From positions 124,001 through 188,000 of the forward strand of contig JAPETS010000034.1 of assembly GCA_026023565.1 (NCBI GenBank): a stretch of 64,000 nucleotides of DNA, in the 5' to 3' direction. Shown piece by piece: positions 9,219 to 27,592 of the stretch. The stretch comes from Cirrosporium novae-zelandiae (lineage: Eukaryota). The position numbers were made by a program, and so were the translations under genes. Each line of letters begins with the position of its first letter. Positions within the stretch are counted from its first letter, which is position 1. The notes under the pieces were generated by a model. It did not search any database and was not told where the DNA came from. It saw only the letters and a list, made by a program, of their open reading frames with translations.

Positions 9219-9330
9219 TGATGAGGGTGGGATTCGAACCCACGCGGATTGCTCCACATGGAAACACCTCTTTTTTGCAAAGAGCTGCGGAACCTGAACC
9301 ATGCGCCATAGACCACTCGGCCACCACATC
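9219..9330 (-). tRNA. tRNA-Leu(CAG) with 30-nt intron
   Basis: Minus strand reads GATGTGG-TGGCCGAGTGG (A box), anticodon stem CATGG/CCATG with CAG at 9296-9294, intron 9263-9292, long variable arm, GGTTCGAATCC B box, T-run terminator. The acceptor stem has one U-U mismatch. Confidence 0.93.
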
Positions 9331-24730: not shown

Positions 24731-25561
24731 AATGTATTAGATTGGAGTCATGGATTCAAAAATGGCCTTGCAATTTGCATTTGGGCGGATACGTGAACAA
24801 TTAAGTTATCTTTTGTGCTTCGGGAAAAGTTGGGCTCCCCCAGAGAGCTGAATGCTTTGGCTTTTATATATCTGGGTCAAGGTACACTGTACACAGCGAT
24901 GATGTTTGATTACGATGTCATATGGTTTGATGATGAACTTAAATGGATGGGCGTAGGATGAATACTCCTCTCCGGGTTTGCAGTAATTAAGATCTAGATA
25001 CCAGCTGATATGAAAGAAATTTCGATATGTTATTATTCAAAATATTGTCTGACGTATTTTCAAAATCGGTACAGGGATGTACTGAAATAAATACAAAGTT
25101 ATTTCTAAGGTTACTAGGTACTTAGAGTTTATTTGTTTCGGGTTAGTGGCCGGCAGAAGAAAGCCTTTGCCGAATGGTTGGCTCGGTGTTATCTCGGTCT
25201 GATGAAATATATCGCATGATATCTTCAATGCACTGTACTGTAACATAAAATCTCTTCCATATCATTTTTTCTCTTCTGAATTTGCTTACACAGTACAATC
25301 AGACTAGGATTCTATCGAGTTGAATTGTTGAATATAAGTCGTTTTTTATCAAAGTAGTAACTTCTTCTCACCCGAAAACTCTTACTGGAAATGAATAGCT
25401 ACTGATTCCATTATCCAGATCAGACCACTAAACCTCCTCCGAAGAGGTCGAAGCCCTTCAAGCCACACCATTTGAGTAACCGTGATACTCTCCATCCCTC
25501 CACCAACCATGAAGACGAGTAGCAGGAACATGTCCCGTGATCAAGGTATCTAGATAGCACT

Positions 25562-25703
25562 GCATGAAACCGGTGTTCGGTATCTCAGTCTCTTGTGCAT
25601 CCACATTCTTGAAAAACAGAATGCGGTCTGGAGCTATGAGATTCCCGTTCTGAGATGATACGGTTATAACTTGATCTGGATAATTCCAGCGAAAGGATCA
25701 TGC
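25562..25703 (+). promoter_or_regulatory. TPP riboswitch aptamer in a 5'-leader intron
   Basis: P1 GCATGA(25562-67)/TCATGC(25698-703); P2 AACCG/CGGTT; GGTGTTCGG..CCGTTC-TGAGAT with extended P3; P4/P5 CTTGATCTGGATAATTCCAGCGAAAGG. Followed by branch site TACTAAT and acceptor TAG at 25756. Confidence 0.95.
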
Positions 25704-25762
25704 TTTTTTCTCCCCTCCTATTACGTATGAACATATGAGGATACTAATTCGTGTAGGGCGAA

Positions 25763-27592
25763 ATGATGGCATCGAATTCAGAGTCAGGAGATGTCACCAA
25801 CGGCCACGGTCGAGTCAATGCGGATGCTGTCAATCTTGATGGCGAAAAGGACCCTCAAGCTGTCAGAGAGTTGGGTAGATTGACCGATAATACGTCTACC
25901 ATCGAAGGATTCGCTGGATATATGAAACATCTCAACAATGTACTATCACACCATAATGTTGAAGCTCGGGGCATCCAACGAGTCCCCACCAGTGAACGGA
26001 TTGAGCGCCTTCGGTGGACAAATATAGTTCAGATGTTTCTGTTATGGTTCTCCGTCAATCTGGCTGCCAACAATATCACGCTCGGCATGCTTGGGCCAGC
26101 CGTATACGCGTTGAGCTTCAAAGACTCCGCCTTGACCAGCGTCTTCGGCGCTCTCGTTGGAAGCATCCCTGTTGCGTATCTGGCAACCTTTGGCCCATTG
26201 TCCGGCAATCGTACAATGGTTTGTGACACCCCATAGAAGTTTCCTTAATGGCGGTTTATAGACATAGTTTACTGATAATAGATAGATCTTTGCAAGATAT
26301 ACTATGGGCTGGTGGCCCAGTAGGCTCATTGCGGTCCTGAACATCATTGTCTCCATCGGATACGCGTTGATTGACTGTGTTATTGCTGGTCAGATACTTT
26401 CCGCGGTATCACCCCATGGTAGTTTATCCATTGTTGTCGGTACGTCTTGTGCATGGAATATACTATCACCTAATACGCTCTGATCCCCATAAACAGGCAT
26501 TATTATCGTAGCAGTCATCACCTGGGTTGTCACCAGTTTTGGCATCAGGATATTCCACCATTACGAACGGTAAAATCCCACCCCCCCCAAACCTACACTA
26601 ACCTTCACACAAACCCCTACTTACTAACTTAAAAAAAATCTAGATGGGCCTTCCTCCCTCAACTAATCGCCATCATCATCGCCTTCAGCGTGACAGCGAA
26701 ACACTACACCCTCACAACCCCGTCCTCCGGCTCCCCCGCCACCGTAACCGGAAACCGCATCTCTTTTTTCTCTCTCTGCCTCAGCGCAGCAATAACCTAC
26801 TCAGGCGCGGCTTGCGACTACTTCGTCTACTACCCGCCGCAAACGCCACGAATAATTCTATTCACGCTCATCCTGCTATCCTTAACCTGTTCCTTCACGC
26901 TAACCTTCCTTTTGGGAATCGGGCTCGCCTCCGCCCTCCCCACCCTGACCACCTGGTCAACCGCCTACAACACCTCTCAAGGCGCGCTGCTCGTAACCTC
27001 CCTAACCAGCTCCCCGCTTCATCACGCCTTTGGCTCCTTCATTTCCATCCTGGTCGCACTCGGCCTCATCGCAAACCTGATTCCGCCAACCTACTCCTCC
27101 GCCCTGAACCTCCAAATCCTCTCACCAACACTTGCCCTGGTCCCGCGCGTCTTCTGGAATACCCTATGCGTGATAACCTATACGGCGTGTGCCCTCACGG
27201 GCCGCAACTACCTCGCCTCCATATTTACAAACTTCCTCGCCCTCATGGGCTATTGGGTCGCCATCTGGGTTTCCATCACGCTGGAAGAACACCTCCTATT
27301 TCGCCGCTCGTCGCACATAAACTTCCGCTCTGAATCCTCCCTCGCGGGCCCTTATAACTGGGAGGTCTGGAACCAGCGTGAGAAGCTGCCCGTTGGGATT
27401 GCGGCGCTGATGGCATTTCTGGTAGGGTGGGTCGGCGCGGTGTTGTGCATGGCGCAGGTGTGGTATGTGGGACCGATTGCGGGGTTGGTGGGGGAGTTTG
27501 GGGCCGATTTGGGGAATTATGTGGGGTTTTTATGGGCCGGGGTGGTCTATCCGGTTTTGAGGTATTGGGAGATTAAAAGATTTGGGAGGTGA
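25763..27592 (+). CDS. NCS1-family (purine-cytosine permease, Fcy2/Tpn1-like) transporter, probably for thiamine or a precursor
   Basis: EARGIQRV, LWFSVN, GPLSGNRTM|IFARYTMGWWP, DYFVYYP, FTNFLALMGYW, WYVGPIA motifs; many TM segments; introns 26219-26285, 26440-26496, 26570-26643. Substrate inferred only from the riboswitch. Confidence 0.92.

Follow-up and report, generated by a model that had tools for sequence, protein, structure and literature searches.

The leader of an NCS1 permease gene of the fungus Cirrosporium novae-zelandiae appears to contain a functional thiamine pyrophosphate (TPP) riboswitch, which is most likely an OFF switch of the type known from the NMT1 gene of Neurospora crassa. 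The gene was found in a window of 64,000 nucleotides, the whole stretch of DNA analysed here (contig JAPETS010000034.1, positions 124,001 to 188,000). All positions given below are those of the window, and the parts of the switch and the permease gene are on its forward (+) strand. The aptamer lies within an intron of the 5' leader, the acceptor of which is located just before the main start codon. The NMT1 type is preferred because the window and the orthologous loci contain every sequence element of the NMT1 scheme. [quoted passage not shown]

Covariance models, covariation and ligand-contact motifs make it near certain that the region 25562-25703 is a genuine and complete TPP aptamer. The original prediction, made from the letters of the sequence, had placed a full aptamer at these positions. 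It was borne out by a covariance model of 23 orthologues free of the window, which matched 25560-25705 with 86.4 bits (E about 5e-19); up to E = 10 it had no further match anywhere in the 64 kb, whichever the strand. This model, made because another one, R1, described below, had included the window, uses the structure proposed by RNAalifold itself. The three-way junction consists of P1 (GCAUGA 25562-67 / UCAUGC 25698-703), the pyrimidine sensor arm P2-P3 and the pyrophosphate sensor arm P4-P5. P2 is formed by 25568-72/25661-65, and P3 is very long, with its base at 25578-80/25645-47 and a continuation at 25582-87/25637-42. The junction J3/2 (CUGAGA) occupies 25650-55, P4 is formed by 25670-72/25693-95 and P5 by 25676-79/25686-89, and the loop L5 comprises 25680-85. 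When 25562-25703 was folded in isolation, P1 and P5 were present in both the minimum free energy (MFE) and the centroid structures (z = -2.2). The four ligand-contact features of fungal TPP aptamers listed in PMC5882874 are GAGAU in J3/2, GCG in J4/5, UAAU in L5 and two G residues 18 nt apart. All of them are present in the window, namely GAGAU at 25652-56, GCG at 25689-91, UAAU at 25681-84 and G25673...G25691 with a spacing of 18.

Orthologous loci were collected with an alignment of 27 full-length orthologues, which was used to fetch metagenome-contig DNA; 520 stretches matched the pattern, 265 of them encoded a relative, and the best 80 were retained (L001-L080). The upstream alignments revealed an invariant TPP core and a P3 of highly variable length. 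In 24 aligned aptamers, CTGAG, ACGG and ACTTGATC were invariant, and the canonical helices were paired in 93.9% of cells as against 24-45% with a slid partner. Six pairs demonstrated compensatory changes in this alignment, and its covariation of 0.199, compared with 0.108 for shuffled alignments, was reached by none of 500 shuffles. The covariance model R1, built from these 24 sequences with the window among them, matched the window once and 68 of the 80 loci once each, every time on the coding strand and just upstream of the coding sequence (CDS). The 50 distinct aptamers so matched were paired in 94.7% of cells (slid controls, 12-50%), with compensatory changes in 8 of 20 pairs and a covariation score reached by 0 of 500 shuffles, in an alignment that was fitted to the model and so leans towards it. 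The compensatory changes are located in P1, P2, P3 and P5.

Twelve loci gave no match with R1, among them L011, which has the leader without the intron. Nine of them have 0-193 nt of upstream DNA, too little to tell, and one of these nine (L058) begins within the 3' end of the aptamer. Two others, L057 (3700-3760) and L059 (3730-3790), have 4 kb of upstream DNA and contain just a P1/P2-like remnant, a GCATGAACAGGTGTTCG-like sequence corresponding to the 5' half of the aptamer. The remnant is situated in an apparent leader intron, and it looks like the trace of riboswitch decay in one lineage. The weakest clear aptamer is that of L001 (3754-3876), with an R1 score of 40.1 bits and a P4 that is partly missing; the leader of this locus has ATACGA, without GT, at the position of the distal donor and GATCAAA as the masking element (the sequence next to the proximal donor that is described below). 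It may be a degenerating copy.

The original prediction had proposed a search with the Rfam TPP model as a check, and the result was divided. Applied to 25300-25900 with reporting by E-value, RF00059 matched 25617-25714 with E = 2.1e-6, but the score of 40.1 bits is under the gathering score of 54.3, and at gathering thresholds the whole window yielded a tRNA as the sole match, RF00059 not being reported. In the RF00059 alignment, the 5' half is placed on the wrong nucleotides. Bits are lost to the long insert in P3 and to the lack of the model's extra hairpin. Twenty orthologous loci were also scanned, 18 of which bear an aptamer according to R1 (L029, L060, L064, L052, L048, L002, L017, L061, L053, L037, L007, L039, L027, L014, L036, L072, L050 and L019). 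Of these aptamers 17 fail the Rfam threshold too, and L029 alone passes it (56.1 bits). The score of the window is therefore typical of the class and not a sign of decay; it reflects the threshold of one general model and no structural feature.

These data bear on the view that the aptamer is an evolutionary relic, no longer regulating. This has been speculated for the class named 'TPPsw-NUC' after its representative in Aspergillus oryzae: a molecular-dynamics paper suggests a lower computed binding energy and speculates that the class binds TPP more weakly or has lost its function (PMC8786325). The sub-threshold Rfam score agrees with this view, and L057 and L059, where a 5'-half remnant was found despite ample upstream DNA, indicate that loss of the aptamer does occur. 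Nevertheless, the window has kept the full set of ligand-contact motifs, and 68 of the 80 loci carry the aptamer, in which four helices show compensatory changes. The elements of the expression platform outside the aptamer are likewise conserved and change jointly with it, as described below, which a relic would not maintain. It seems very unlikely that the window contains a relic.

The arrangement of the leader around the aptamer corresponds to that of NMT1. The candidate distal 5' splice donor GA|GUAACC is located at 25476-25481, with its GT at 25476, and the proximal donor AG|GUAUCU at 25546-25551, with its GT at 25546. The two alternative donors flank two upstream ATG codons (uATGs), one at 25509 in the context CAACCATG and the other, in the same frame, at 25530. 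The 3' end of the intron (25744-25756) includes the branch-site consensus CUAAU (25744-48), with the branch A probably at 25747, and the acceptor UAG, the AG of which is 25755-56. The main ATG follows at 25763, six nt past the intron end. When 25545 is joined to 25757, that is, when the intron 25546-25756 is removed, a 39-codon uORF arises, which is out of frame with the permease and ends at the TGA 25837-39. The exonic part of this uORF upstream of the donor is 25509-25545, and its conserved reading, M-K-T-S-S-R-N-M-S-R-D-Q-G, runs across the proximal donor. When 25475 is joined to 25757, by use of the distal donor, both uATGs are gone. The script check of the window sequence reproduced every position that had been given beforehand for the donors, the uATGs, the acceptor, the main ATG and the 39-codon uORF. 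Seven further ATGs were found inside the leader intron. An extra uORF of four codons (MNSY) is present at 25391-25405, 5' of both donors. The leaders of the orthologues have the same order as the window, from P1 through a pyrimidine tract, CTRAY and YAG to the main ATG after 1-27 nt.

Directly 5' of the proximal GU lies the anti-P4, or masking, element GAUCAAG (25539-25545). It is a perfect complement of CUUGAUC at 25670-25676, a segment that comprises the 5' strand of P4 and nucleotides of J4/5, is invariant in two orthologue alignments and is proposed to be the partner of the masking element in the absence of the ligand. Binding of the ligand, the choice of donor and the direction of regulation can be predicted from this layout as follows. 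At low TPP, CUUGAUC would pair with GAUCAAG and mask the adjoining proximal GU. The distal donor at 25476 would then be spliced to the acceptor at 25756, both uATGs would be lost, and the permease would be made from the main ATG, which comes after the first six nt of the second exon; the distal donor would accordingly define the ON isoform. When TPP is bound, P4 and P5 would be locked in the aptamer, leaving the proximal donor at 25546 free to be used. The resulting messenger RNA, the presumed OFF isoform, would keep the 39-codon out-of-frame uORF overlapping the main ATG, and little permease would be produced. Unspliced RNA would be non-productive as well, because of the seven ATGs in the intron.

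The conservation of this platform was assessed in 69 leaders, that of the window among them. Clustering at 85% identity gave 40 lineages, and one representative of each was counted. Of the 40 lineages, 26 have an exact GATCAAG among the 70 nt that precede the aptamer, compared with 21 of 1760 random 70-nt segments of the same loci (1.2%); with at most one mismatch allowed, the counts are 36 of 40 and 157 of 1760 (8.9%), respectively. A GT follows the exact GATCAAG directly in 23 lineages. An open uATG upstream of the proximal donor is present in 30 of the 40 lineages. In 27 of the 28 lineages where the acceptor and the main ATG could be placed, the uORF that results from proximal splicing is out of frame and extends past the main ATG. 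The lineages keep the uORF (M-x-x-S-S-R...D-Q-G) in a single frame; of the 25 with xATCAAG|GT, 22 have an open uATG that is in frame with GAU-CAA-G.

Similar evidence was obtained for the distal donor, in a count made independently of the choice of uATG. In 24 of the 39 lineages with enough DNA, a GTACG precedes the aptamer by 45-130 nt, as against 100 of 1982 background segments (5%), and its positions cluster at 63-94 nt. With the broader pattern GTA[ACT][ACG] the count rises to 35 of the 39 lineages (background, 802 of 1982). The GAG|GTAACC of the window, at 84 nt, has the same position as GAG|GTACAG and GAG|GTATAG in the nearest relatives, L053 and L064, where the offset from the uATG is also the same, and it is aligned with a conserved donor-like GUA of the orthologues. 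The claim that the leader is arranged as in NMT1, with a distal donor, a uORF, a proximal donor flanked by a complement of P4 and an acceptor near the main ATG, was upheld, the arrangement being conserved across the orthologues well above background.

Two pairings between the proximal donor region and the aptamer had been pointed out in advance, and both exist in the window. The first joins 25547-55 with 25674-82 (UAUCUAGAU/AUCUGGAUA; 9 bp, one of them G-U), and the second joins 25539-45 with 25670-76 (GAUCAAG/CUUGAUC; 7 bp, perfect). They share 25674-76 and therefore cannot form together. Conservation was found for the second pairing, and the first is specific to the window: as a general feature UAUCUAGAU/AUCUGGAUA was rejected, since the intron bases after the GU vary freely among the orthologues, and it is treated here as a pairing that may be lineage-specific or due to chance. 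GAUCAAG is exactly complementary to CUUGAUC, which does not vary and is made up of the 5' strand of P4 together with nucleotides of the junction next to it. When the leader and aptamer of the window were folded by partition function without a ligand, the pairs of the helix had a mean probability of 0.83, and 7 of 7 were in the MFE structure; in the ligand-free ensembles the probability of the masking helix was at least 0.5 in 22 of 31 evaluable lineages.

The two strands of this helix also change together. In L073 (223-362), L018 (3762-3902) and L066 (64-200), the P4-P5 sequence is CUUGCCUGG in place of CUUGAUCUGG. The donor side of these leaders reads GUAUCAG|GUAAAC, where CAG|GUAA pairs with UUGCCUG of the altered strand. 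The three lineages probably represent one clade and hence a single evolutionary event, in the direction expected of a masking helix. In L062, the element is GAUCGAG, and the helix is kept via a G-U pair.

Several observations weigh against an NMT1-type OFF switch in the window, in addition to the Rfam score and the published speculation mentioned above. Compared with GUACG, the consensus of the orthologues, the distal donor GUAACC is a weaker variant, and it lies 33 nt from the uATG, where the orthologues mostly have 17-25 nt. The exact GATCAAG is missing in 14 of the 40 lineages, and in four of them even a match with one mismatch is missing; the ligand-free ensemble disfavours the masking helix in 9 of the 31 lineages. 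The four-codon uORF at 25391, if transcribed, would stay in every isoform.

The weak distal donor also leads to the question of whether the aptamer is real but controls intron retention, or inhibits splicing in general, at a single donor, the upstream GUAACC being unused. The distal site is a weakly matching candidate, and a retained intron with its seven ATGs would alone silence the main reading frame. On the other hand, splicing at the proximal donor alone always leaves the overlapping uORF, which means that no productive isoform would exist, and if the sole donor were masked at low TPP, an uptake gene would be regulated in the wrong direction. The tight placement of GUACG, 63-94 nt upstream of the aptamer, in 24 of the 39 lineages at a background of 5%, also speaks for a second donor. 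Control at a single donor is thus considered improbable, and switching between two donors is the preferred explanation.

One orthologous contig, L011 (1962 nt), deserves separate mention. Its region 1-140 contains a donor-like AAA|GTATGG, a uATG and a GATCAAG that is followed at once by the few bases preceding the main ATG; the aptamer intron is missing. The junction is exactly the one expected of the isoform spliced at the proximal donor, the OFF isoform, with the region of the distal donor retained. As such an isoform, L011 would put the start of transcription upstream of the distal donor, which is suggestive only. Contrary to this, L011 may be genomic DNA from which the intron was lost, rather than a transcript. 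L007, its nearest genomic relative (81% identity), is also devoid of introns in the CDS, and L011 has no poly(A) tail.

The uORF includes a stretch, GAGUAGCAG (25516-25527 in the window), which is conserved at the nucleotide level in L029, L060, L014, L050, L051, L037, L039, L001 and others. The two Ser codons in it are nearly always AGU-AGC and not UCN. This conservation is explained neither by the masking of the donor nor by the need to encode the peptide, and it draws attention to pairing of the kind described for N. crassa NCU01977. There, according to PMC3597705, the aptamer resides in a long internal intron, and an alpha-alpha' pairing over about 530 nt involves the 3' side of P1. An analogous pairing of a leader element with the post-P1 or branch-site region could loop out or mask splice signals, with no masking of a donor. 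In one clade (L029-like), reverse complementation of GAGUAGCAG gives CUGCUACU, which lies at the branch site, and in the window GUAGCAGGA could pair at 8 of 9 positions with UCCUAUUAC at 25716-24, as judged by eye. As a general feature, the pairing of GAGUAGCAG with the branch site was rejected, since only 6 of 21 leaders beat 95% of shuffles in duplex energy against the post-P1 region. For the leader of the window the same comparison gave p of about 0.065, p was 0.11 when the leader/post-P1 pairing was tested in matched against permuted lineages, and a Fisher test for the joint occurrence of AGUAG and CUACU across lineages yielded p = 0.07. Pairing over a long distance comparable to that of NCU01977 is therefore unsupported in the window and in the orthologues, and the conserved complement of P4 at the donor accounts for the data without it. 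It is the least likely of the alternatives considered, and scarcely to be expected.

The gene controlled by the putative switch extends from 25763 to 27592 and encodes an NCS1 permease of the Fcy21/Tpn1-like type. The exon model was obtained by enumerating GT-AG combinations and keeping only those in frame; it consists of the exons 25763-26218, 26286-26439, 26497-26569 and 26644-27592 and predicts a protein of 543 amino acids. Except for the first Met, the translation is identical with a public protein of 542 amino acids (P0001), which is annotated as a hypothetical protein of a C. novae-zelandiae metagenome-assembled genome (MAG). A comparison with Pfam PF02133 (Transp_cyt_pur) gave 74.1 bits at a cut-off of 23.5, and residues 83-503 covered profile positions 7-440 of 440, that is, the whole transmembrane core of an Fcy-type NCS1 permease. 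A search of NCBIfam for a specific CytX- or thiamine-type model yielded just the general NCS1 model TIGR00800, at 158.5 bits and below its cut-off of 353.1.

As was found by a search with exon 4, 1218 proteins among 8000 scored candidates match at E <= 0.001, and the best 120 of these 1218 are proteins of Pezizomycotina with 56-63% identity; orthologues in this group number in the hundreds. The labels of the homologues at source are FCY21, purine-cytosine permease, nucleoside transporter and vitamin B6 transporter, and the best homologues include many Aspergillus proteins labelled 'nucleoside transporter' or 'purine-cytosine permease'. A comparison of the orthologue profile with PDB sequences, sought for a residue-level comparison of substrates, found no match at E <= 0.001. 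The flanking genes encode a fungal-specific transcription factor and ATG2, and no thiamine context was found among the neighbours. Elsewhere in the window, Rfam identified a tRNA on the reverse strand at 9219-9330 (44.4 bits). Behind its anticodon loop 33 nt are inserted, as would be expected of an intron in a nuclear tRNA; under bacterial settings, ARAGORN reported no tRNA in the window.

As its substrate the permease would be expected to take thiamine itself or a vitamer or precursor related to it. Conjectural, too, are the thiamine repression of the permease and its preference for thiamine, hydroxymethylpyrimidine (HMP) or a B6 vitamer over cytosine or purines, both of which the original prediction had proposed. 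Bacterial cytX genes sit behind THI-box riboswitches. The Arabidopsis protein PLUTO is reported as an HMP importer, and CytX is the name given to its bacterial homologues (PMC11452348). The permease of the window belongs to the same NCS1 superfamily, a likeness at the level of the family, and the report on this plant protein makes a thiamine precursor plausible, by analogy, as the substrate. It is conceivable, as a tentative proposal, that the Fcy21/Tpn1-like clade, in which the putative riboswitch is nearly universal, is a dedicated importer of thiamine or of a precursor such as HMP in Pezizomycotina, a fungal counterpart of plant PLUTO. The leader perhaps contains a second regulatory layer, with the conserved stretch GAGUAGCAG of the uORF, which donor masking leaves unexplained.

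The combination of this gene and this riboswitch has already been described in other fungi, and the window represents a further case. TPP riboswitches on Tpn1/Fcy21-like genes, named 'nucleoside' or 'putative' transporters, have been published for A. nidulans (AN4526.2), A. oryzae ('TPPsw-NUC'), Stagonospora nodorum and Xylona heveae (PMC5997356, PMC5882874, PMC8786325). Surveys of 2018 reported them for this transporter family, and Moldovan et al. 2018 (Fungal Genet Biol), as cited in PMC5997356, found more and named them putative transporters. In PMC5882874 the class is filed as the 'nucleoside transporter' family, and a Type I splicing control based on a uORF is proposed for it. The A. oryzae riboswitch was modelled in PMC8786325, where experimental validation was noted as lacking. 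A literature search for experimental work on this transporter class found none, with subscription journals mostly outside its reach. Since the combination is already in print, the finding is less novel than the original prediction assumed, and nothing in it would surprise a riboswitch specialist.

The window shares with the published transporter riboswitches the protein family (PF02133) and a TPP aptamer in an intron at the 5' end, and for those riboswitches, too, alternative splicing based on a uORF or stop codon has been proposed. It differs from them in coming from a new species, with a MAG-derived genome, and in its unusually long P3; orthology with AN4526.2 is suggested indirectly, by the many Aspergillus proteins among the best homologues and by the aptamers of the orthologous loci. 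With N. crassa NMT1 it has in common the aptamer in a leader intron, the two 5' splice sites and the complementarity of P4-P5 to the proximal site. In contrast to NMT1, which encodes the synthase of HMP phosphate (HMP-P), the gene of the window encodes a transporter, and its uORF consists of one conserved frame that continues through the masking element. NMT1 has also been validated by experiment, whereas the switch of the window is recognised by the conservation of its sequence. Control of the splicing of a transporter gene by a TPP riboswitch is likewise found in NCU01977 of N. crassa and DUR31 of Candida. Dur31 was shown to transport thiamine (PMC5997356). The proteins of these two genes, unlike the permease described here, are of the SSF/urea-transporter type, an unrelated family.

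At the curated threshold, the general Rfam TPP model misses this class, namely the window and 17 of the 18 orthologous aptamers; this riboswitch has therefore probably been annotated too rarely in fungal genomes and MAGs. The pairing of GAUCAAG with CUUGAUC provides a precise and testable model of the expression platform. From the comparison of orthologues it can be argued that selection maintains the 'nucleoside transporter' TPP riboswitch as a complete switch of the NMT1 type, with its aptamer, both donors, the frame of the uORF and the masking element, and selection on the whole switch bears on the published speculation about a loss of function. The clade of permeases to which the gene of C. 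novae-zelandiae belongs is thereby marked as a candidate importer of thiamine or a related vitamer.

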